Shown here: positions 16,507 to 63,762 of the stretch, piece by piece | Numbering within the stretch: the stretch's first letter is position 1 | Layout: each line of letters opens with the position of its first letter | DNA from: Octopus vulgaris | Lineage: Eukaryota | Assembly: GCA_951406725.2 (NCBI GenBank) | Contig: OX597817.1 | Span: 169,632,001 to 169,696,000 of the forward strand | DNA length: 64,000 nucleotides | Direction: 5' to 3' | The notes under the pieces: generated by a model | Database searches by the model: none | What the model saw: only the letters and a program-made list of their open reading frames with translations | Told to the model about the DNA's origin: nothing | Program-made: the position numbers and the translations under genes

Positions 16507-16935
16507 CATCATCATCATCATCATCATTTAGCGTCCGTTTTCCATGCTAACATGGGTTGGATGCTTCAACTGGGGTCTGTGAAGCCAGAAGGCTGCATCA
16601 GGCCCAGTCTGATCTGGCAGTGTTTCTACGGCTGGATTCCCTTCCTAACGCCAACCACTCTGCGAGTGTAGTGGGTGCTTTTTACGTGCCACCCGCACAG
16701 GAGCCAGACGGAGCTGGCAAACGGCCACGAACGGATGGTGCTTTTACGTGCCACCGGCACGGGGGCCAGGCGAGGCTGGCAACGGACACGAACGAATGGT
16801 GCTTTTACGTGCCACCGGCACAGGGGCCAGTCGGGGTGGCGCTGGCAATGGCCACGAACGGATGGCGCATTTTACGTGCCACCAGCACGGGGGCCAGGCG
16901 AGGCTGGCAATGGCCACGAACGGATGGTGCTTTTT
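16507..16935 (-). mobile_element. RTE 3' end (family B) with ~4 internal ~61-bp repeats
   Basis: (cat)n tail; repeated cacgaacggatggtgcttttacgtgccacc. Confidence 0.8.
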
Positions 16936-16936
<1 letters not shown>

Positions 16937-17028
<92 letters not shown>

Positions 17029-26627: not shown

Positions 26628-27475
26628 TCTTTATATATAAAAGAAAGGTTGTGTGTCTGTCTACTCCGATTTAGATTCCTAACTACTCCCACATTTTGTG
26701 ATGCAGTTTAACCAAAACCGAGTATCTTATAGTCGTGATTCATATCGAGCCCTTCTGGGTATTAGCGCGCGTCTACGATGAGTCTACGATTTTACAAATA
26801 ATTTACCATCATTTTTTCCCATTTTAATGCATTTTTTTAAAATTAAGGGAAGTAACTTTTTTAAAATTAAGGGAAGTAACTTTCAAACTTCACACCAATA
26901 TGCGTGCATGCGTGCATCAGCAGCATTTCCTCACACCCTCATTGCACTTGGCGAAGGCAAAATACCAGGGGATGAAAATGGTAATATTGCCATCGATTCC
27001 ATTTGTACCATTGTTAAGACACCTTCTGATCTCAGAGATGCAGTGTTCCAAGCTAATTATCAGAATATGGATTGGATTGGCAAAAAGGCTATACTGGCCC
27101 CAAAGAATAAAACTGTTCACCATATTAATGATGAAATGCTAAAACTCATTCCTGGGGAAGTCTATGTATATCAGTCTATCGATACAACTCCTGACCCAGA
27201 GGATGTCATCAACTATCCAATAGAGGTACTCAATTCCTTTGAGCACCCCGGACTACCACCACTCATTCTCAAACTTAAAGTTGGTGCCCCTATAATGCTC
27301 ATCAGAAATTTGGTTCCCCCAAAACAATGCAATGGCACACGTTTGATCGTTAAGTCCTTATCTCCCAGCGTAAACTTATATCAATATTTGCCTGAATAAT
27401 CATCATCATTCAGTGCAATCATTAACAGTACTTTCAAGTAATTCAGCCCCGAGCAACGTCGGGCAATTCTGCTAG
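26628..27475 (+). mobile_element. Non-autonomous Helitron carrying a PIF1-like helicase fragment
   Basis: 5' A|TC, 3' hairpin cccga-gcaacg-tcggg then CTAG|T; internal helicase ORF. Confidence 0.85.
26911..27370 (+). pseudogene. Helitron RepHel PIF1 helicase fragment
   Basis: AILAPKNKTVHHIN..YPIEVLNSFEHPGLPPLILKLKVGAPIMLIRNL..CNGTRLIV, typical of the PIF1 C-terminal half. Confidence 0.85.
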
Positions 27476-28268: not shown

Positions 28269-28523
28269 ATATTAATAGAAGCAATGACAAGGATGATATC
28301 TAACAGAGGAACAAGACAAACATTTGAGTGAGGATCAGCAGTCCATTGTATTGACCCAAATACCTGACGGGTAATTTATTTTATTGAAACCTAGAAGGTT
28401 GAAAAGCAAATTTGACCTTGGTAGTATTTGAACTCAGGATGTAAAGATCTGGAAGAAACCCAGCAAAGTAATTTGTCCAATACTCAAACACTTCTGACGG
28501 TTCATAATAATTTCTTTTATTAA

Positions 28524-29565
28524 CCTGACACGTAAAAGCACCGTCCGTTCGTGGCCGTTTGCCAGCTCTGTCTGGCCCCGTGTCGGTGGCACGTAAAAGC
28601 ACCATCCGTTCGTGGCCGTTTGCCAGCTCTGTCTGGCCCCGTGCTGGTGACACGTAAAAGCACCATCCGTTCGTGGCCGTTTGCCAGCTCTGTCTGGCCC
28701 CGTGTCGGTGGCACGTAAAAGCACCATCCGTTCGTGGCCGTTGCCAGCTCTGTCTGGCCCTGTGTCGGTGGCACGTAAAAGCACCATCCGTTCGTGTCCG
28801 TTGCCAGCTCTGTCCTGGCCCCGTGCTGGTGACACGTAAAAGCACCATCCGTTCGTGGCCGTTTGCCAGCTCTGTCTGGCCCCGTGCTGGTGACACGTAA
28901 AAGCACCATCCGTTCGTGGCCGTTTGCCAGCTCTGTCTGGCCCCGTGCTGGTGACACGTAAAAGCACCATCCGTTCGTGGCCGTATGCCAGCTCTGTCTG
29001 GCCCTGTGTCGGTGGCATGTAAAAGCACCATCCGTTCGTGTCCGTTGCCAGCATCTGTCTGGCCCCGTGCTGGTGACACGTAAAAGCACCATCCGTTCGT
29101 GTGCCAGTTGCCCAGCTCTGTCTGGCCCCGTGCTGGTGACACGTAAAAGCACCATCCGTTCGTGGCCGTTTGCCAGCTCTGTCTGGCCCCGTGTCGGTGG
29201 CACGTAAAAGCACCATCCGTTCGTGGCCGTTTGCCAGCTCTGTCTGGCCCCGTGCTGGTGACACGTAAAAGCACCATCCGTTCGTGTCCGTTGCCAGCAT
29301 CGCCTGGCCCCGTGCTGGTGACACGTAAAAGCACCATCCGTTCGTGGCCGTTTGCCAGCTTTGTCTGGCACCTGTGCAGGTGGCATGTAAAAAACACCCA
29401 CTACACTCGTGGAGTGGTTGGCGTTAGGAAGGGCATCCAGCCGTAGAACACTGCCAGATCTGACTGGGCCTGATGAAGCCTTCCAGCTTCACAGACCCCA
29501 GTTGAACCGTCCAACCCATGCTAGCATGGAAAGCGAACGCTAAATGATGATGATGATGATGATGA
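28524..29565 (+). mobile_element. RTE 3' end (family B) with expanded 61-bp minisatellite
   Basis: ~14 tandem units, then the standard family B terminus and (gat)n. Confidence 0.85.
28527..29380. repeat. 61-bp GC-rich minisatellite, ~14 copies
   Basis: Unit g(g/a)cacgtaaaagcaccatccgttcgtggccgtttgccagctctgtctggccccgtg(tc/ct)ggt. Confidence 0.95.
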
Positions 29566-32383: not shown

Positions 32384-32566
32384 TTATGTAGCTGCTTCTG
32401 AGACTTCAACATCTGCCGATTCTGTGTGAGAGTTGATAATATCACACTGTATCATCTGATCAGTTTGTGGGAAAACAATTGGTGATGTAGAAGCATCGAC
32501 AACATTCTGTTGAAAATCTGTCTGAGTTTGAGCATCGATTCGTGGTGAGGACAAAGGAGTTAAATA
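32384..32566 (-). CDS. Terminal coding exon of an unidentified gene (disordered C-terminus with TQT motif)
   Basis: Acceptor ttttactgcttcag|; phase 0; YLTPLSSPRIDAQTQTDFQQNVVDASTSPIVFPQTDQMIQCDIINSHTESADVEVSEAAT*. Confidence 0.75.
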   Translation of the reverse strand, partial: YLTPLSSPRIDAQTQTDFQQNVVDASTSPIVFPQTDQMIQCDIINSHTESADVEVSEAAT

Positions 32567-32797
32567 CTGAAGCAGTAAAACAGAGATATATTAATAAAAA
32601 TCATGAAACAACAGGCGCAGGAGTGGCTGTGTGGTAAGTAGCTTGCTAACCAACTACATGGTTCCGGGTTCAGTCCCACTGCGTGGCATCTTGGGCAACT
32701 GTCTTCTGCTATAACCCCGGGCCGACCAATGCCTTGTGAGTGGATTTGGTAGACGGAAACTGAAAGAAGCCTGTCATATATATGTATATATATATAT

Positions 32798-32929
32798 ATT
32801 TATTTTATAGAAGGAGCTTCTACAGGACTAGAACTGTTTCATTCAGATGAAATCTTCAGGAAGCTTCCTGAAGATTTCATCTGAATGAAACAGTTCTAGT
32901 CCTGTAGAAGCTCCTTCTATAAAATAAAT
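32798..32929. repeat. Perfect 132-bp palindrome with no spacer
   Basis: 66-bp arms checked base by base; centre aag|ctt at 32863/32864. Confidence 0.95.
32863..32911 (+). ncRNA. Type I hammerhead ribozyme motif (identical mirror copy on the minus strand at 32816-32864)
   Basis: gcttc CTGAAGA t ttc atct gaa t GAAA cag ttctagtc ctg TA gaagc. Stem I gcttc/gaagc, stem III ACAG/CTGT, GUA triplet; U-U at the base of stem II. Confidence 0.7.
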
Positions 32930-32994
32930 TACTTTACTCTGCTATGTATTGAGTACCTTATTTACTGTGGTTAACCCCGACTCAACCCGGGACC

Positions 32995-33051
<57 letters not shown>

Positions 33052-33574
33052 CTGTGTTTGTCCCCCTAGTATTGCTTGACAACCGATGCTAGTGTGTTTA
33101 CGTCCCCGTCACTTAGCGGTTTGGCAAAAAGGGACCGACAGAATAAGTACTGGGCTTAGAAAGAATAAGTCCCGGGGTCGATTTGCTCGACTAAAGGCGG
33201 TGCTCCAGCATGGCCGCAGTCAAATGACTGAAACAAGTAAAAGAGTAAAGAGTAAAGAGTAACACAAAACAAAACAGACACTGACATATTTTGTAGCAGC
33301 AATTCTAAATAACTATAAAGCATTAAAAGAATAAGTAATTCTATACAAGTTGTACCTAATCAATAAGAACAGAAATTGATGCTGATGTTGACAAAGAAAT
33401 CAATCTTATTTCATAATTGCAGTCAGCTTTAATGTAGAATATAAAACAGGAATTCTCTTTAAGATACACCAGTTGCATCAACATATGATAAAAATACCCT
33501 GACAGAGATTTGAATTAATTTATAAATTCAAGTACATATTTATATGTATATACTGAAATATATTTAACCATCGA

Positions 33575-33831
33575 TTGGCCTCCGTGCTGTGGGCACGTAA
33601 CAAACACCATCTGATCGTGGCCGTTTGCCAGCCTCGTCTGGCACCTGTGTCGGTGGCACATAAAATCACCCACTACACTCTCGGAGTGGTTGGCATTAGG
33701 AAGGGCATCCAGCTGTAGAAACACTGCCAGATCTGACTGGCCTGGTGCAGCCTTCTGGCTCCCCAGACCCCAGTTGAACCGTCCAACCCATGCTAGCATG
33801 GAAAGCGGACGTTAAACGATGATGATGATGA
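33575..33831 (+). mobile_element. RTE 3' end (family B)
   Basis: Standard terminus ggacgttaaac(gat)n. Confidence 0.8.
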
Positions 33832-34181
33832 TTTCTTATAAATAGATGCAGTTGTCTGCAAGGATACAGAAATTTCAAAACAGGCAATAGATTTTTCAGA
33901 AACGGTGGAGCATCAGACAAAACACCTTAAAATGTTTAATCAAACTACTTCAAATTCTTATTTTAAGTCCTGCAAAATTTGCCTTTGTTTTTACATTCTA
34001 CTGAGGTCAATTATAAAACGTACCAGCTGAGTGGTGGGATCAATATGTTTGATTGGGCCAATCCTGATCAATTTCTGGTTTTATTACCTCATTAGAAATC
34101 ATTACTGTCATAGCCATCCCTGTCACCTGCACAGCTGCCATTATAGATATTGTCATCATAATTATCATCATCTTTACTATT

Positions 34182-34530
34182 GTGAAGGTGCATGGCTCAG
34201 TGGTTAGAGCGTCGAGCTTACGATCATGAGGTTGTGAGCTCGAATCCCGGACCGGGCTGCGTGTTGTGTTCTTGAGCAAGGCACTTTATTTCACGTTGCT
34301 CCAGTTCACTCAACTGTAGAAATGAGTTGTGCTGTCACTGATGCCAAGCTGTATCGCCCCCTTTGCCTTTCCCTTGGATAACACTGGTGGCGTGGAGAGG
34401 GGAGGCTGGTATGCATGGGCGACTGCTGGTCTTCCATAAAACAACCTTGCCCGGACTTGTGTCTAGGAGGGTAACTTTCTAGGTGCAATCCCATGGACAG
34501 TCATGACCGAAGGGGGTCTTTACTCCTTTA
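34182..34530 (+). mobile_element. tRNA-derived SINE family E
   Basis: tggctcagtggttagagcg..gagctcgaatccc A/B boxes; homologous to the copy at 63774. Confidence 0.8.
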
Positions 34531-34746
34531 CTAGAATGGCAGATTGGCAGAATAATTAGAGCACCAGAATAAATGCCTTGTCATACTACTTCTAGCTCTT
34601 TAGATTCTAAGTTCTAATCTTGCTGGAGTCAAATTGCCTTTCATCCTTTCTGGGTCAATAAAACAAGAACCATTTGAATACTGAGGTTGATGTAATTGAT
34701 TTACTCCCTGCCCCAAATCTGATGGCTTTGTACCATAATTCAAAAC

Positions 34747-34834
<88 letters not shown>

Positions 34835-34836
<2 letters not shown>

Positions 34837-35069
34837 TCATTTAGCGTCCAATTTCCATGCTAGCATGGGTTGGACGGGTCAACTGGGGTCTGTGAAGCTG
34901 GAAGGCTTCCAGCACGGGGCCAGGCGAGGCTGGCAACGAACACGAACGGATGGTGCTTTTACGTGCCACCGACACGGGTGCCAGACAGAGCTGGCAAACG
35001 GCCTCAAGCGAATGGTGCTTTTACGTATCACCGACACGGGTGCCAGACGAGGCTGGCAGCGGACACGAA

Positions 35070-35070
<1 letters not shown>
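34835..35070 (-). mobile_element. RTE 3' end (family B), internally deleted
   Basis: catttagcgtccaatttccatgctagcatggg plus internal repeats. Confidence 0.75.
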
Positions 35071-35103
<33 letters not shown>

Positions 35104-35722
35104 TAACTTTTTAGAGCTCTCGGTCCTACTTGCTCTGGTTGATTCTGTGAGAACAGACAGCAATCTATTGCAGTAGGAGCAGTCCGCCCTGGGCAGCACT
35201 TTTCATCCTGTTGTAGGCTATTGCTGCAGGCAATATGAGATTTTTGTGGGGTCCAGGGGTGGCAAACGGAAGGGCCGCTCCAGCAACACACACTCTAGCT
35301 AAGCTAGTGCCTTTAGGTAACATTTTAGGTGCACCAATTACTACAGGAATAATTATATTCTTAGTCTTCCACAGTCTCTTCAGCTCTCGGGTTAGATCCG
35401 GATATTTCTTGATTTTTTTCAATTTCTTTAATATTGACTCTGTTATCATAGGGAATTACAAAATCTATAATCTATGTATTTATTTAGTCCCTTATTATCA
35501 TATCTGGTCTTCTTGTTTCAATAGTATAGTCAGTCTTTATGGGGAAGCCCCATAAGACCTTGTAATTCTCAGCTTCTGCTTTGTCTCCATACCACTTTTC
35601 TGTTATTTTGAAGTTACACACATCAGCTAACGTCCCAACGCACTCTTTTACCTGCAGTTACAGCTGCATTTATACTCTTTTTGTGCTGATATACCACAAA
35701 CACTCAATAGATAATTGATACT
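35104..35722 (-). mobile_element. R4/Dong-like LINE 3' relic (restriction-like endonuclease domain)
   Basis: KVLWGFPIKTD..ETRRPDMII..KIKKYPDLTRELKRLWKTK..IPVVIGA; 3' end abuts (AAT)n. Confidence 0.75.
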
Positions 35723-35857
35723 TTCATCATCATCATCATCATAATCATCACCATCATTATTCTCAGTAGTACACTGTCACATCATCAAATACTGATTCTT
35801 TGTACCCTATTTCTGGCAGTAACATTTGTTGGTTTCCTCTCAAAAGCCTTTCTTTAG

Positions 35858-36079
35858 CCCTTTCGTTACCAACCCGGCTGAAACCGGCTCTGGCTCTGAG
35901 TACAAATATCCTGTTTTTGTAAGTTTTGAATTAAAATCTTCCACCAAACCTTAGTCACAATTTATGGTTCCTAACACTAGCTGAATGATAACCAAGTTAT
36001 TTTACTAAATTCTTTGTTATATTTAAAACTAATTGAAAGGACAACAGAACATCTCAAAATAAATACAGTAACGAAAGGG
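35858..36079. mobile_element. piggyBac-type MITE, copy 1
   Basis: TIR ccctttcgttac / gtaacgaaaggg; flanks ttag / ttaa. Confidence 0.75.
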
Positions 36080-36294
36080 TTAAAAAAGGAAGTTTGTGCC
36101 ATAGAACCAGAGGTGGCAGATGATTATGGAACTGACATGAGAAAAGACATACCTATGTAAACATTCTTTAGTGACTGCTGTTTCATTTAACCTTTCTAGG
36201 CTTTTTTTTTTTTTTTAAAATATTATTATGGTGGCATTTGAAGCATAAATTAATATGAAATTCTGGTGGGAGGTTTTAACTAAGAACACTTTAA

Positions 36295-36515
36295 CCCTTT
36301 CGTTACCAACCCGGCTGAAACCGGCTCTGGCTCTGAGTACAAATATCCTGTTTTTGTAAGTTTTGAATTAAAATCTTCCACCAAACCTTAGTCACAATTT
36401 ATGTTCCTAACACTAGTTTAATGATAACGAAGTTATTTTACTAAATTCTTTGTTATATTTAAAACTAATTGAAAGGACAACAGAGCATCTCAAAATAAAT
36501 GCAGAAACGAAAGGG
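36295..36515. mobile_element. piggyBac-type MITE, copy 2
   Basis: TTAA-ccctttcg ... cgaaaggg-TTAA; near-identical to copy 1. Confidence 0.8.
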
Positions 36516-37273
36516 TTAAACTACATGTAGGTCTCATGTGGCAATTATTATTATTTCTCCATTGTTTTCTTAAACACCGGAATATGAAGATGATGCAAGT
36601 GAGAGGTACCAACAGTTTTAATCAGTCTAACAGCAGTAATAAAGCAATTAGCAGAATCATTAAAGCACCAGACAAAATGCCTATAGTATTTAGCTACAAC
36701 CATTCTGAGTTCAAAATCTTGCCAAGGGCCAGCTTTGTTCTTCATCCTTCTGGGCTCAAGAAACTAATGTACCTGTCAATTATAGGGGTTAATTTGCATT
36801 CTTATTATGCATTATAGATGTGAATGGAATTATAATAGGACTTAGAATAAGATTTAAATAGACAACATTGAACAGATGTAGAACTAGAAAAAGTTAGTAG
36901 TTATGTAGGTTTTAATCTTCATGTCAAAGACATTGTAATTGTAATAGATTATATACAATCTTTTATGTAAAATTGAGTGTCTGACATCTGGTTTCAACTG
37001 TCGCCAATTTTAAAGACATTTTCAAATTATTGGTCATTTGAAATCTTGTTATTTTGACAGTTTCAGCATATACCTATGTCTCCAGAACCACTTTCTGGGA
37101 TAACTGACGTGAATTAGCTAATTAATTTGTGTCACAATTTCTATTAAGAACTCAGAAAGCTGAACATTCAATTTCATTTCCATTTCACTTGTAATAAACA
37201 ACTAGAATTAGCTGTTGTGCTTTCCATTTTTGCTATGGTGATGTACATCATACCAAAACTCAATCACAATCCT

Positions 37274-37356
<83 letters not shown>

Positions 37357-37460
37357 TATAATAATAATAATAATAATAATTTACTCCAGTGTCACTTTGA
37401 TGGCATGCACTGCTCACTCACTCAATAATAATAATAATGATAATAATAATAACAATAATT

Positions 37461-38875
37461 CTAAATACTCAAGACAGAGCTGAATGCAAGAAACAGGTTT
37501 GAAGTGATCAGTACTTTAGCCATACCAGTTGTGACTTACAGTTTCAATATCATTAACTGGTCAATTACTGAAATATGTAATCTTGACAGAAAAATATGAA
37601 AATTGTTGATAATGCATAGAATGCACCATCTTAAGGCAGATATAGAACGACTTTATCTTCTAAGAAAAGAGGGAGGCCATGGACTTTTACAACTGGAATT
37701 AACAATGAAGATTGCCACAATTGGCCTAGACACCTACCTGAAAAACTCTGATGACTGGATGTTAAAACTTGTCTCAAAACATGAAAACAAGAAAGCATCA
37801 TACTCAGTAACAAAACAAGCAAAGGAATATCTAAATGAATTCCAAATACAACAAATTTCAGAATTAGACATACAAGTACAGAAAAAGCTAAGCATATGAA
37901 AACCTGTGCTAAAACTGCTGCCTTAGACATTCTTACTGATAAATGGTAAGAAAAACCTCTCAATGGCAAATACCCAAAGAGAGCTAATAGTGTTGATGTT
38001 GACAAAGCCCTTACCTATCAATGGTTAGTGGCTTCTGGCTTAAAATCAGAAACAGAAGGGTTTATCATAGCAGCCCAAGATCAATGCCTTCCTACAAGAA
38101 ACTACCAGGCCAACATATTGAAGAATGGCAGCAGCCCAAAATGAAACCATTGATCATCATGTCTCCATGTGCAGTCTCCTTGTGCCTACAGAGTATCTCA
38201 AAAGGCATGTTAGAGCAGCACAATATATTCGCTGGGTAATTTGCAAAAATCTGAACCTGCTGCATGATAAAAACTGGTGGGAACACAAACCATCTCCAAG
38301 TGCTTGAAAATGACCGCATCTCACTCCTCTGGAACTTCACCATTCTAACTAACAGAAAGATAGATGCAAATAGGCCAGACATTACATTGAAAGACTTCAG
38401 ACAAAAATCATGCCTCCCCATTGATATGACTGTCCCAATCAATATAAATGTTTTTGTCAAGATCTACCAAAAACTCAGCAAGTATAAAGATCTTGAAATA
38501 GAAATTGGCAAAATGTGGAACCTCAAGACTAAAACAATACCTGTTGTCATAGGTGCCCTGGAAATGATAGCAAAAGGGGCTGATTGCTACCTAGCTCAGA
38601 TACCAGGAAACCCCAAAATGGCAGAAATTCAAAAGGTAGTGCTCATGGGAACTGCCCATATCCTACATAAAATACTGTTTATGTAATCTCAAATTTTAAA
38701 ACAAACTTATAATTTTCTTATGGTTTCTTAAACATTCTCTAGAACAACACTATGTACAAAACCAAATATATGACACCCTAGGCATAACACCAACATGAAC
38801 TTCTAACTTGTCTCTTGAGGTCTCTGGCTGAGACTTGGAGGCCACTTGTACAAATACAAAACAAAAGTCAAACAT
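37461..38875 (+). mobile_element. R4/Dong-like LINE, 5'-truncated (RT thumb, CCHC remnant, REL domain, 3' UTR)
   Basis: ILKTELNARNR..KADIERLYLLRKEGGHGL..SETEGFIIAAQDQ..ETIDHHVSMC..LLWNFTILTNRKIDANRPDI..IDMTVP..KYKDLEIEI..IPVVIGAL; (AAT)n on both sides. Confidence 0.85.
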
Positions 38876-39650
38876 ATAATAATAATGATAATAACAATAA
38901 TAATGATGATGACGATGATGATGATAACCTCAAAGTTTTGCACAAGGCCAGCACTTTTGGGTGAGGGGGTAAGTCGATTACATTGACCCCAGGGCTCGAC
39001 TGGTACTTATTTTTCAAGCCCAATAGGCTGAAACCTTGATGGAAATTTGAACTCTGACTGTAAAGTCAGACAAAATGCCACAAAGTATTTTTGGCATATT
39101 AAAAATTCTTCCACCTTAACAATAATAATAATTCTTTCAAATTTTGGATCAAGGCCAGTAATTTTAAAGGTGGGGTGGGGTAAGTTGATTACATCAGTGC
39201 AAGTACTTGACCAGTGCTTTATTTTATCAATCCTTAAAGGATGAAAGGCAAAGTTGACCTTAAAGGCATTTGAACTCAGAAATGCCACCGAATAATAATG
39301 ATACTGGCTTCAAATTATGGCACAAGGCCAGCATTTTTGAGGGGAGGGAGTTACGCAATGACACTGATCCCAATATTTGACTGGTACTTTATTCTAGCAA
39401 CCCCAGTACATGACTGGTACTTCATTTTATCAATCCTGGTGGGATGAAAGCAAAGTTGACCCTGGCAGAATATGAACACAGAATATAATGAGTTAAATAT
39501 ACTGGTATTTATTTTGTTGTTTATTCGGATCATAATGAGATCTTATGAAATCATAAGGCCAAAGGTTTGTGGTGGGGTATCAGTTAATTCATGTTGACCC
39601 TCTGCTTGACTGGTACAACTACTAATGATATTGGGTTTTTCTTTTATTCT

Positions 39651-40104
39651 TTTCTTTTATTTTTTCAGTCATTTGAATGTGGCCATTCTGGAGCACCACC
39701 TTTAGTTAAGCAAATCAATCACAGGACTTATTCTTTGTAAGCCTAGTACTTATTCTATCGGTGTATTTTGCCGAACCGCTACGTTACGGGGATGTAAACA
39801 CACCAGCATCGGGTGTCAAGCAATGTTGTTGGGACAAACATATACACACATATACATATAAGTTAGTATAGTTAGAGGTTGGAATAACAATCTAAGGGAT
39901 AAAAATATCTATTATACTACTAGTTTAATTCCCTATGTTAACCCAGGATGTAAGTCAATTGTTGTTGATCAATCCACTCACAAGGCTTTGGTCGGCCTGA
40001 GGCTACAGTAGAAGACACTTGCCCGAGATGCCATGCAGTGGGACTGAATCCAGAACCATGTGGTTGAGAAGCAAGCTTCTTACCACATGGCCACACCAGT
40101 GCCT
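39651..40104 (-). mobile_element. SINE family A (diverged)
   Basis: Reverse complement of the family A tail and head. Confidence 0.75.
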
Positions 40105-40342
40105 ATCCACAGAATAATGAAACAAATGTTAATGCTTTCTACTATAAGCACAAGGCCTGAGAAGGAGCTAGTCAATTACATTGGCCCCAATGCTCACCTG
40201 GAACTTATTTTGTCGACCATGGAAGGATGAAAGCCAAGTCAACCTTGCAGAATCTAAACTCAGAACAATGATACTAATGATAATCCTTTCTACTATATAG
40301 AACCCAGTGACCAAATGGTATTTATTTCATCGATTTATTTCA

Positions 40343-40575
40343 AGGGCGGTGGGCTGGCAGAAACGTTAGCATGCCAGGCGAAATTCTTAGCGGTATTTCA
40401 TCTGCCGTTACGTTCAGAGTTCAAATTCCGCCGAGGTCGACTTTGCCTTTCATCCTTTCGGGGTCGATTAAATAAGTACCAGTAACACACTAGGGTCGAT
40501 ATAATCGACTTAATCCGTTTGTCTGTCCTTGTTTGTCCTCTCTGTGTTTAGTCCCTTGTGGGTAGTAAAGAAATA
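40343..40575 (+). mobile_element. SINE family F
   Basis: gggcggtgggctggcagaaacgttagc..gagttcaaattccgccgaggtcgac..gtaaagaaat. Confidence 0.85.
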
Positions 40576-40750
40576 GGTATTTATTTCATTGACTTTGAAA
40601 GGATGAAAGGCAAAGCTGACCTTAGCAGATTTTGGACTCAGAAGGTAAAAATGGGTGAAAAGGTGTTAAGTATTTTGTCCAACATGCCAATGATTCTGCT
40701 AGCACCCTGTCTTAATGATACAAATAATAATGATACAAGTTCTATATTAC

Positions 40751-40987
40751 CTCACTCTCTTGACTTTTTGCCTTGAATTCAGAGCTGCACTGATCCTCAT
40801 AGTTTACTTCTGTTTGGTCAGCTTTCTCTGTAGGCAGCTGGGGATCCGGAGAAGTTTCATTTAACTGGAGATGTTCTGTGGTTTTCTCACTTGGTGGTGG
40901 AGTACTGAGGAAATTGTAGCTGCCATCTTTTTCTGTGTCCTCCACTTCAGTAGTAGGAATGTGTGAATTAACAGGGCTCAGAGACAT
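40751..40987 (-). CDS. Internal coding exon (237 nt, phase 0/0) of the minus-strand gene
   Basis: ttccatatttcag|ATG ... GAG|gtaat; MSLSPVNSHIPTTEVED...EFKAKSQESE, S/T/E/P-rich. Confidence 0.8.
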
Positions 40988-41400
40988 CTGAAATATGGAA
41001 ACAAATATATTCTTAGGATCAGCTTGTTCAAACTATAAAGAAATCAAATAGGTGCAAGTTGTAAGGACTACCAAACACTTGACCAAGAGTTGTAGCATTA
41101 CTAAATATCTGTTGTACTATTTTCCTGAAGAGGCGTACATAACTTTAATTGCTCCCATCTGGTTGACTGGCATAAAAACAATCACAATCCTTACTTCACA
41201 GTCAAATAATCATGGTATGAAGGACTTCCAGCAATAAACAACAATTTTGCCAACAAAAAAATGCATGTATGTATTGCAGTTCTGTACAATAAATAGTCTT
41301 ACAATAATAAATATCCTGTTCAACCACTCAATGAAAAGATGGACAACATGGGTTTCACCTGACAATCAGACATTCAATTAAGTAATCTATATTATTATCC

Positions 41401-41692
41401 GTGGAGGCGCAATGGCCCAGTGGTTAGGGCAGCGGACTCGCGGTCGTAGGACCACGGTTTCGATTCCCAGGCCAGGCGTTGTGAGTGTTTATTAAGCGAA
41501 AACACCTAAAAGCTCCACGAGGCTCTGGCAGGGGGTGTTGATCCCTGCTGCACTCTTTCACCACTCTTTCTTCTGTTGGCCTGCTCGCTTAGCCAGCGGG
41601 GTGGCGTCATTCAGAGGCTAAAACAATGCGAACGCATTGTGACCAACGATGTGTAACAACATCTGATGGTCTGGTCGGTCACGTGATCACAT
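41401..41692 (+). mobile_element. SINE with family C head and a different 3' half
   Basis: 12-bp TSD atattattatcc; diverges from family C after ctctttcaccac. Confidence 0.8.
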
Positions 41693-42094
41693 GATATTAT
41701 TATCCAGGAAACATAAACACCAAAAACGATTTTTATCTTTACCTTTTTGGATATTTTAATAGTCCCACCAAACAGACAAAAGAAAATGATGAAAGCAAAG
41801 TGATATGGTGCAAATAAAACTGTCGATGTGAAAGTTTGAAATAAAGGTAAAAAAACTTAAGACAGATAAGACAGAAGGGACAACAAACAAATAAAGAAAC
41901 CGTTAACTTAGAAATAAATGGCAAGCCTACCATCAGAAATAGAGGCTGTCCATGGTATATGACAAAGGCAAAAAGTTAGAAGAGAAATGCTGAACAACCC
42001 AGATGATATTGTTAAAGTGAATGATTTGAATTATTGAACAAAGCAGTTAGAATAGTTAGTAAAATGTAAATGAATGAAATCTCAAGGATCTCTA

Positions 42095-42500
42095 ACCATG
42101 GAGGGAATCTGTGGGAGAGGAAGACCCAGGAAGACATGGGATAAGGTAGTAAAGTATGACTTTTGGATGTTGAGTCTCACAGAGATAAGTGACTGAGACT
42201 TTTGGCAATTTGCTGTGCTTGAGAAGACATGTCTAGCTAAGTGAACTTGTAGTTGTGGTAAGTGCCAGTGATACTAAAAGGCACCTGTGTTGGTGGCATG
42301 TAAAAGGCAGCTATGCTGCTGACATAAAAGGTACCCAATACACCCTGCAGAATGGTTGGTGTTAGGAAGGGCATCCAGCCACCATAGAAACTATGCCAAA
42401 ACAGATTGGAGCCTGGTGCAGCTCTCCGGCTTACCAGTTCCAGTCAAACCATCTAACCCATGCCAGCATGGAAAACGGATGCTAAATGAAATGATGATGA
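42095..42500 (+). mobile_element. RTE LINE 3' fragment including the ORF end
   Basis: GICGRGRPRKTWDKVVKYD immediately upstream of the family B 3' UTR, identifying family B as an RTE terminus. Confidence 0.75.
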
Positions 42501-43652
42501 AAATAGAACCATTAGGAGCTAACTTCACCCATTGCAAGTAATTTTATGAAGTGGAGAAGAGCAGAAAAATATAGATTGCAATTAAAGATAAAGCTGGAAA
42601 AATTATTTCACACAATATCTAAACTCTGAGTCGCCCAACAACCATTAAGCATTTTGAGAAATCCTGGATTAGTCAGCTAATATGGAGCATAGGTCATTGA
42701 GAAATTTTCTCCACTGTTCTTAACACTGGGCCACGCCCTCAGGATGGGAATCATCCACTCAAGGAAGATATTCTTCTCCCAGGTCTTGCTGGTTTTGAAT
42801 TGTCATTGATGCTCCTGACACTTCGCTTTTTTTTATGAGTAGAGGTCAAGGTTGACCATCATTCTGTACATGTATGTGCAGGGCTATACTTTTTATTATG
42901 AAGATTGATAGTTGCCCACACATACAAGTCTCAAGATACAGCTTGGCATTAGTTTTGTTGCAAAATGTAAAGAATGTGAAGAGCTGACAGAATGTAAAGT
43001 GCTGGATCTTTACACAAAGAATCTTGCTCAACTCTCAACTAGCTCTATCCATCCACTGTTTTGGATTGGTATTTTTCTAGTGACCCTGAAGGTATGACAG
43101 GCAAAGCTGACCCTGATTGAATTTGAACTCAGAGTGCAGAGAGAGCCAGAACAAATAACACGAGGCACTCTGTCCCACACTCGAATGACTCTGCCAGTTT
43201 GCTTCCTTGATATTCCTAACGAAGACTGAAAACAATCTATGCTAGGAATATTACAAGACAGGCACTGAAATACTTCCATTAGTAAAGCTCTTCAGATGAC
43301 AAATACTCTTCAGACAGACAGACAGATAGCTAGATATTGAGGACACTAAAGAGAAAGTTCTTATAAGCCAGTTCAAAAAATGGTGTAATGAAAGCAGTGA
43401 TGATGACAATTATCATCTTTTCTCAAGATCATTAATAAGAGGAGGATTAAATGAACTTATTACAAGATCTAAGTGATTTAAGTGGTGGATTAACAACAGC
43501 AACTGTCTCTTGTCTCCTACAGTTGATGATAAATTTCTGAAGAAGGATATTGATCAGATTGATCAGTTGAATAGAGATTAAATAGTTAGCCAACCATTTA
43601 GACTATTAAATTGACGGTATGGCTTATAATGAAAAATATCATAACAACTTAC

Positions 43653-43841
43653 CATATTACTGTCTATTTCTAAAAATAATGGTTTCACTTTGTTGAAGAC
43701 CTCTTCACTAAATTTTGACTGAGACACTATTTGACATGTAAGACTGTTTGTATAAAACTGAGAAACAGTTGAGTTCTCAGGTGCATTTGACGGGCTGATA
43801 CAACTGTCCATGTGCTGCTTGTCTTTTGTGCTGGTGTCCAA
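43653..43841 (-). CDS. Internal coding exon (189 nt, phase 0/0) of the minus-strand gene
   Basis: tttcatttcag|TTG ... ATG|gtaagt; LDTSTKDKQHMDSCISP...FSEEVFNKVKPLFLEIDSNM. Confidence 0.8.
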
Positions 43842-44469
43842 CTGAAATGAAATTTTAGAAAAAGGCTCTGGTGAGACCAAATGTTGTTGTTGTAATCAAT
43901 GTCATCACTGCCCTCACCATTATTGCTGTCATCGTAGCCATCATTTCCTCAGCATTACTGTCATCATCATAATCATCATCACCACCATCGTCTTTGTCAT
44001 CGTTACCCCCCCCCCCCCCCGCCACCACCTCAGATTTTGGGGAGAAGGAAAAATTCCCTTGCAGGTACTCCAATACTTATATTCATAGTGTGATTGGTCA
44101 ATATGCCAGATGTGACATTAGACTTAGACACTAGTACCTATAAACTCTTTTTGAACTCTGAATGAGAGGCTGGCATATATTGATTACAAATTTGGGTACA
44201 GGGCTAGGGATTTCTTTAGAGAAAAGGAAGTTGATTACATCACCCTCAGTGTCCAACAGGTACTTATTTTATCAACCCCCAAAAGGATGAAAGGCAATGT
44301 CAACCTTGGCGGAATTTGAACTCAGAACATAAGATAAATGAAATACTGCTAAGCACTTTGCCTGGCTTGCCAATGATTCTGCCAGCTCACCACCTTAAGG
44401 GTGGCATATATTAATACAAGTTCTGTCATCCAGCCATAGTTTTCAGGAACTTGGTCAAAGGGGTTAGCA

Positions 44470-62900: not shown

Positions 62901-63084
62901 ATTTCTTCTTTTGCTGGTGTCTCAAATTTAGATTAAATCAGTGTTTCTCAAAGGGGAGGCCTATGGGATGGTCAAACAAGTTGTTTTGAGAAAATTTGGT
63001 TTAAATGTTTGACAACTCAGCACCGTCCATTGGACGGGGGGCATTTTGCTCGTATGTATATATATATATATATAAAATATATAT

Positions 63085-63762
63085 ATGTGCCGGTGGCACA
63101 TAAAATGCACCATCCGAGTGTGGCCGACGCCAGCACCGCCTCGACTGGCTTCTGTGCCGGTGGCACATAAAAAGCACCAACCGATTGTGGGATCCCAGAA
63201 CATCTCGCTGTGCTTGAGGAGACCTGTTGAGTCAAGTGCATGTACATGAACATCGAACCAAATATCAATGGAAACAGTAGTTGTGATACCTGTGCCGGTG
63301 ACACATAAAAAGCACCATCCGAACGTGGCCGTTGCCAGTGCAGCCTCCACTGGCTTCTGTGCCGGTGGCACATAAAAAGCACCATCCGAACGTGACCGAT
63401 GCCAACCCTGCCTCGAATGGCTTCTGTGCCGGTGGCACATAAAAAGCACCATCCGAACATGGCCGATGCCAGCACCGCCTTGACTGGCTTCTGTGCCAGT
63501 GGCACATAAAAAAAAAAAAAAGCACCAATCGATCGTGGCCGATGCTAGACCCCTCTGGCACCTGTGCAGGTGGCACGTAAAAAGCACCCACTACACTCGC
63601 GGAGTGGTTGGCGTTAGGAAGGGCATCCAGCTGTAGAAACACTGCCAGATCAGACTGGATCCTGGGGCAGCCCCTGGCTCCCCAGACCCTGGTCGAACCG
63701 TCCAACCCGTGCTAGCGCGGAAAACGGACATTAAACGATGATGATGATGAGGATGATGATGA
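63085..63762 (+). mobile_element. RTE 3' end (family B) with several internal repeats
   Basis: Repeated gtgccggtggcacataaaaagcacc; (gat)n tail. Confidence 0.8.

Follow-up and report, generated by a model that had tools for sequence, protein, structure and literature searches.

A hammerhead-bearing palindrome in an octopus intron as the probable scar of a Penelope-like element insertion

What is a perfect 132-base palindrome with a hammerhead-like motif on each strand doing in the last intron of an octopus gene? We studied a window of 64,000 nucleotides from Octopus vulgaris (the whole stretch of DNA that was analyzed) and conclude that the palindrome is likely the scar of one insertion of a Penelope-like element (PLE) resembling those of the Hydra clade—a 134-nt stub of which 66 nt were probably copied back, leaving a transcript predicted to fold into a hairpin in which the ribozyme is dead. 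The structure is the standard one for PLE insertions, a point missed by an earlier note on this DNA. At its locus, the palindrome is probably functionless, the ordinary trace of an insertion rather than a switch for the gene. The features concerned, by window position, are these:

32613..33249, plus strand: host SINE, very high copy, split in its TA tract by the insert (about 32777-32797 and 32998-33038)
32798..32863, minus strand: left arm, an inverted, shorter copy of the unit, with the minus-strand hammerhead reading (predicted site 32821)
32861..32866, no strand: palindrome centre and head-to-head junction, whose origin we infer below
32864..32910, plus strand: type I hammerhead-like motif (stem I, core, stem II, GAAA, stem III, GUA), its layout compared with PMC8557442 File S2
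32864..32997, plus strand: the unit in direct orientation (134 nt), probably a PLE 3' end truncated on its 5' side; high-copy family
32930..32997, plus strand: 68-nt extension, on the direct copy only, a possible PLE "tail" (published tails, 30-40 bp)
32384..32566, minus strand: terminal coding exon, 60 aa, 100% identical to the end of the O. vulgaris hypothetical protein P0002
32567..40744, minus strand: last intron, about 8.2 kb, from tblastn of P0002-P0004, with GT and AG ends

The two arms (32798-32863 and 32864-32929) are 66 bp each and 100% complementary, with a spacer of 0. They form the only perfect inverted repeat outside low-complexity sequence in the window at an arm length of at least 20 bp and a spacer of 0-30. 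An alignment with four other copies of the host SINE in the window shows the SINE to be collinear on both sides of a 200-bp insert (32798-32997) in its TA tract; the earlier note had described a perfect, spacer-less palindrome nested in the TA tract of a SINE, and both parts of that description hold. The insert is made up of a 134-nt unit on the plus strand and, head to head with it, a 66-nt inverted copy of the unit's 5' part, so the palindrome junction joins the two copies 5' to 5'. Only element sequence is duplicated—SINE sequence is not—and the insert contains neither coding sequence nor an open frame. No target duplication is discernible in the TA tract around the insert, and within the 64,000-nt window we found neither a further copy of the unit nor a direct tandem repeat of it. 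The central four bases of the palindrome lengthen stem I of the motif (6 bp instead of 4) and so probably belong to the element itself. The 3' end of the insert (32982-32995) matches the reverse complement of a B-box-like stretch of the SINE at 14 of 16 bases, by chance or by capture.

Where does the insert lie relative to the host gene? The host proteins map to three 3' exons on the minus strand of the window (32384-43892), of which the last exon of P0002 is 32566-32384, confirming the position first proposed, in the last intron upstream of an acceptor at 32566. From this acceptor, the palindrome lies 232-363 nt upstream and the predicted minus-strand site 255 nt upstream. The terminal exon is 96% identical to O. 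bimaculoides proteins, and its reading frame near the end differs from that in O. bimaculoides. Pfam returned no significant family for the host protein; the N-terminal part, as given by the O. bimaculoides homologue, is similar to REDIC1/C12orf40 (score 0.83), which is a lead only. The same intron holds two frames (37600-38686 on the plus strand and 35165-35455 on the minus strand) that presumably resemble the 3' end of a LINE, and neither has a Pfam match. It also contains a pair of inverted repeats (33749-33822/34834-34907 and 33622-33670/34952-35000; 88%) about 1 kb apart that could form dsRNA.

How well does the motif match a hammerhead? On the plus strand, stem I is formed by 32864-67 and 32907-10 (4 pairs, or 6 if the palindrome centre is counted), the core C3-A9 by 32868-74, with the variable N7 at 32872, and the GAAA by 32887-90. 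Stem III (32890-93/32902-05) is a 4-bp ACAG/CUGU helix with an 8-nt loop III that contains a 4-nt palindrome. The core CUGANGA ... GAAA, the A15.1-U16.1 pair, and a UH site are all present, and stems I and III are able to pair around the core (4-6 bp and 4 bp, respectively). Stem II, with 3 bp flanked by a U-U opposition and without the G10.1-C11.1 pair, is weak. Cleavage is predicted after 32906 on the plus strand, at the GUA site, and at the mirror position, 32821, on the minus strand. A hammerhead descriptor found two matches in the window (both arms), compared with 1 in 100,000 dinucleotide shuffles of the 134-nt unit and 2 in 100 shuffles of the window; it was written with the motif already in view, so these shuffle rates are somewhat flattering. 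The hammerhead layout that had been read on each strand is thus borne out and exceeds chance, while self-cleavage of the motif is only predicted. Rfam gave no hammerhead match at 32855-32997 at E ≤ 10 (five weak rows), and on the whole window there was no hammerhead among the 150 of 175 matches listed, which were mostly miRNA models on simple repeats, none attaining its gathering score. Folding prediction places the hammerhead fold of a single copy alone 3-8 kcal/mol above the best fold. For the 16-nt helix III segment, the predicted energy is -12.8 kcal/mol as a dimer vs. -1.4 kcal/mol alone. An ATG in stem II, considered as an open reading frame (ORF) start as in the anole element, was rejected because its frame reaches a stop after four codons.

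Is the unit a family? We mapped contigs from four of 24 sequencing runs (X1-X3 presumed to be DNA), keeping only contigs at least 85% alike, and in all four runs the contig depth over the unit was ∼10,000-33,000 times that of the unique flanks. This ratio is not a copy number—the same ratio overstates the SINE several-fold relative to its density in the window—so we take the copy number as thousands; the unit is a high-copy repeat family. All four variable sites listed within the 47-nt motif fall at N7, in loop II (two sites), or in loop III, and none in the stems or the fixed core (P ∼ 0.004-0.008 among the variants listed, from contigs at least 85% alike, a set biased towards conservation). 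This confinement of variants to N7 and the loops argues for a real family motif, as do the matches to Hydra-clade hammerheads in the U-U opposition and stem III described below. A contig from run X4 joins 32845 to 32884, a weakly supported second head-to-head junction of the family (its short side is 22 letters), located at stem-loop II.

How old is the insert? The host SINE differs from the majority of the four other window copies at 11 of 330 positions (3.3%). Were the arms of the same age as the SINE, zero differences between them would have P ∼ 0.012, so the insert is probably younger than its host. The 0 of 66 differences bound pairwise divergence only at <4.5%; of the earlier note's "very recent insertion," the young insertion therefore stands, and "very recent" narrows to a bound of up to 4.5% divergence. 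The same note had offered ongoing conversion as an alternative cause of the arms' identity. The minority alleles at 32879 and 32881 are common to both arms and occur in 5-35% of family depth; they are subfamily alleles, so both arms were copied from one subfamily template, and conversion is unnecessary.

Pattern scans for relatives returned 45 metagenome loci and at least 120 viral loci, none with BLAST similarity to the unit. The best scorers for stem I (one locus with 6 pairs and eight near-identical loci with 5) were set aside as unrelated sequences, and a further locus (L102) was rejected as an acidic protein repeat. Viral contigs with a pattern match plus a 5-6-bp stem I include L125 and the group L099, L106, L109, L116, L126, L139, L142, and L158. 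L125, whose stem II is paired, is possibly a true phage hammerhead with no relation to the octopus unit.

What kind of element left this unit? By likeness, it is probably a PLE 3' stub. It shares with Hydra-clade PLEs a short stem II bordered by a U-U opposition (14 of the 25 families in File S2 of Craig et al. 2021, PMC8557442, counted by eye), an ACAG/CUGU stem III (4 of the 25, of which 3 also share the A at the site), a (TA)n target (listed for all but one of the 27 families in the Hydra sheet), and an adjacent inverted truncated copy. In Penelope-13_HM, for instance, a truncated inverted copy places the motif on both strands, and inverted truncated copies directly at the 5' end, together with a one-sided extension, are described as general PLE features (PMC8557442). 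The motif lies near the 3' end in both: ∼67-190 nt from it in the 13 complete Hydra-clade families checked (our own arithmetic from PMC8557442) and 134 nt from the insert end in the octopus unit, assuming coding-strand orientation. The unit departs from these elements in its loop III, which is 8 nt long vs. 1-3 nt in all 25 families, and in its one-sided extension of 68 nt, compared with a PLE tail of 30-40 bp on one end only. Hydra-1_oBim, the one published octopus Hydra element (PMC8557442), is unlike the unit in sequence. The 3' ends of Naiad_Ovul/Obim differ from it by eye, and the unit has all three stems, whereas Naiad has no full hammerhead. No reverse transcriptase (RT) or GIY-YIG frame is tied to the unit, the stub being without a frame and the pattern scans of metagenome and viral loci without relatives. 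The clade is unproven, given that no RT frame is linked to the unit, that it is neither Hydra-1_oBim nor a Naiad, and that it has a long loop III and a 68-nt extension. In the literature, we found no account of this particular family, only Hydra-1_oBim and the Naiads; 329 recent insertions from 30 Penelope families are reported for O. vulgaris (PMC13282606), and the supplement of that paper or an O. vulgaris repeat library may catalogue the unit.

Comparison with other PLEs points in the same direction, with differences of detail. In Penelope of Adineta vaga (Arkhipova et al. 2013, PMC3846280), as in the octopus insert, a palindromic head-to-head junction joins a shorter inverted copy to a direct copy that alone carries an extension; there, inverted pLTRs of 181-218 bp flank an ORF and target duplications are present, whereas the octopus insert is a stub of 134 + 66 nt. 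Head-to-head palindromic junctions are the most frequent inverted arrangement in that account, which proposes self-priming. The minimal PLE hammerheads of Cervera and de la Pena (2014, PMC4209133) are likewise type I, with an extra base after A9 and a palindromic, dimerizable helix III. Their helix II has 7-8 bp vs. 3 bp in the octopus unit, which differs further in lacking the G10.1-C11.1 pair and in having a 4-bp helix III with an 8-nt loop. The paired motifs of Schistosoma lie on opposite strands 100-700 bp apart (PMC4209133), whereas the octopus copies touch, with a spacer of 0.

We propose that an element-encoded GIY-YIG endonuclease would have nicked the TA tract and that reverse transcription, starting from the element's 3' end, would have halted at the 5' strand of stem I. 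There, the cDNA may have primed itself or switched template at the short palindrome, copying back 66 nt. The new end would then have been joined to the TA tract via A/T microhomology, just past an AATAAA-like stretch.

What would such an insert do in the pre-mRNA? With a 5'-to-5' junction, transcription of either strand reaches the antisense arm before the motif. In equilibrium folding of the growing transcript (a prediction of stability, not of kinetics), arm-arm pairing stands at 17 of 19 pairs while stem II is still lacking and at 45 of 47 once stem I is complete. Ribozyme pairs reach a predicted probability of 0.0000 on the minus strand in this prefix folding, and imposing the ribozyme fold carries a penalty of 67-77 kcal/mol for the minus strand and 69-77 kcal/mol for the plus strand. 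A spacer-less hairpin should nucleate locally while it emerges, and no window for cleavage is expected. In the pre-mRNA, the leading antisense arm would capture the motif in a 64-bp hairpin, which would probably be edited by ADAR and then discarded with the intron; the inversion would in this way spare the host gene any harm from a ribozyme inserted in its intron. The hairpin has 44 adenosines on the transcribed strand. That it serves as an ADAR substrate is plausible by likeness to the ADAR-edited palindromic Harbinger repeats of Xenopus, in which a tight hairpin also comes from one insert; there, the palindrome belongs to the family consensus, whereas in the octopus it is a property of one copy (PMC5625713). 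The same source reports very high hyper-editing in octopus.

The earlier note had envisaged a potential switch affecting the processing of the last intron; spelled out, the pre-mRNA would pass back and forth between a duplex that masks the ribozyme and an active form, whose cleavage of that intron would regulate the gene. Its duplex agrees with the predicted hairpin; its transiently active ribozyme does not agree with the folding order and energies above, and we consider such regulation extremely improbable. It would draw on a motif in transcribed orientation, 255 nt from a real acceptor, and on a duplex that ADAR could loosen. On both strands, however, the motif comes after its antisense arm, and editing that opened the duplex would presumably strike core adenosines too. 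An insert in a young SINE cannot be an old conserved element, which also counts against a switch. Vertebrate conserved intronic ribozymes are single copy and kept at the orthologous intron, whereas the octopus motif is a high-copy repeat inside that SINE. Moreover, metazoan PLE hammerheads are described as cleaving weakly and as dimers, and poorly alone (PMC4209133), and may need the element's protein (PMC11167929).

Could the palindrome have arisen other than by PLE integration, or not exist at all? The left arm might be a fold-back artefact of assembly or library preparation, the true allele being single-copy. The arms are perfectly identical, and among the contigs of the four runs none bridges the locus. 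Contigs in all four runs extend from the left unique flank into the SINE, and the absence of a bridge is explained by contigs breaking within the SINE (a gap in X1 cover at 33290-33359 is uninformative). Fold-back chimeras usually continue to the read end, whereas this inversion is just 66 bp long and the SINE resumes collinearly on either side of it. Assemblies are known to have difficulty with the inverted structures of PLEs (PMC8557442), but a similar junction occurs in the contig of an independent run (X4). Given that the inversion is short, that its flanks are collinear, and that it fits a biological pattern already known, an artefact is quite unlikely. We grade as unlikely, if slightly less so, that a single-copy insertion became palindromic afterwards through DNA repair (priming by fold-back, or a template switch, at a break or stalled fork beside the TA tract) or was kept perfect by intra-strand conversion. 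TA tracts are fragile, the lack of arm divergence is improbable at SINE age, and the palindrome's DNA hairpin is predicted to be very stable (-78.6 kcal/mol; cruciform extrusion is possible). Against this, a younger insertion accounts for arm identity equally well, the alleles shared by the arms are those of the subfamily, with none private, the duplication spares the SINE, and the whole structure is typical of PLE integration.

The unit might also be a stand-alone, non-autonomous hammerhead element—a non-LTR retrozyme or SINE-like element—moved in trans, which we hold to be very unlikely. Like non-LTR retrozymes, it is non-coding, short, and repeated in many copies, and it carries a type I hammerhead (PMC7229834; bioRxiv 10.64898/2026.07.22.740005). 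Its size fits retrozyme monomers, whose consensus lengths span 51-972 bp in the bioRxiv preprint; an intronic setting is also common for Xenopus retrozymes, about 42-44% of whose copies overlap introns in these sources. Non-LTR retrozymes are, however, defined by head-to-tail tandem repeats (PMC7229834), and no tandem direct repeat exists at this locus, where the copies are inverted. Their helix II is canonical, whereas the octopus motif is of the PLE type, without the canonical 4-bp helix II. Retrozymes derive from PLE ends according to bioRxiv 10.64898/2026.07.22.740005, so the stand-alone and PLE readings partly overlap.

If the palindrome is a PLE scar, what set the turning point? The main junction coincides exactly with the short palindrome in stem I, and the second family junction, in X4, lies at stem-loop II. 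From these two junctions, we put forward, tentatively and as a possibility we rather doubt, that the hammerhead helices fix where the Penelope RT stalls and turns round. If that were true, the ribozyme would provide, by its structure, the point at which the head-to-head inversions typical of PLEs turn round, and the inversion would silence it, so that copies would be tolerated in introns. What PLE hammerheads do and how PLE inverted junctions originate are both described as unsettled (PMC8557442, PMC3846280, PMC11167929). The octopus family, with its thousands of copies and unusual 8-nt loop III, would permit a genome-wide test of the idea: in a young, high-copy family with short inverted stubs, junctions can be mapped against helices and an intronic orientation bias can be measured. 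The palindrome itself is a clean example of a known PLE insertion structure and is probably among many hairpins behind octopus hyper-editing.

Elsewhere in the window, no tRNA gene was called. A fragment of a Pif1 helicase 2B domain (26782-27399, plus strand; PF21530, E 2.7e-13) is likely a Helitron remnant. A family of GC-rich short tandem repeats occupies 28381-29488, 16551-16947, and 62961-63711, with long open frames on the minus strand.
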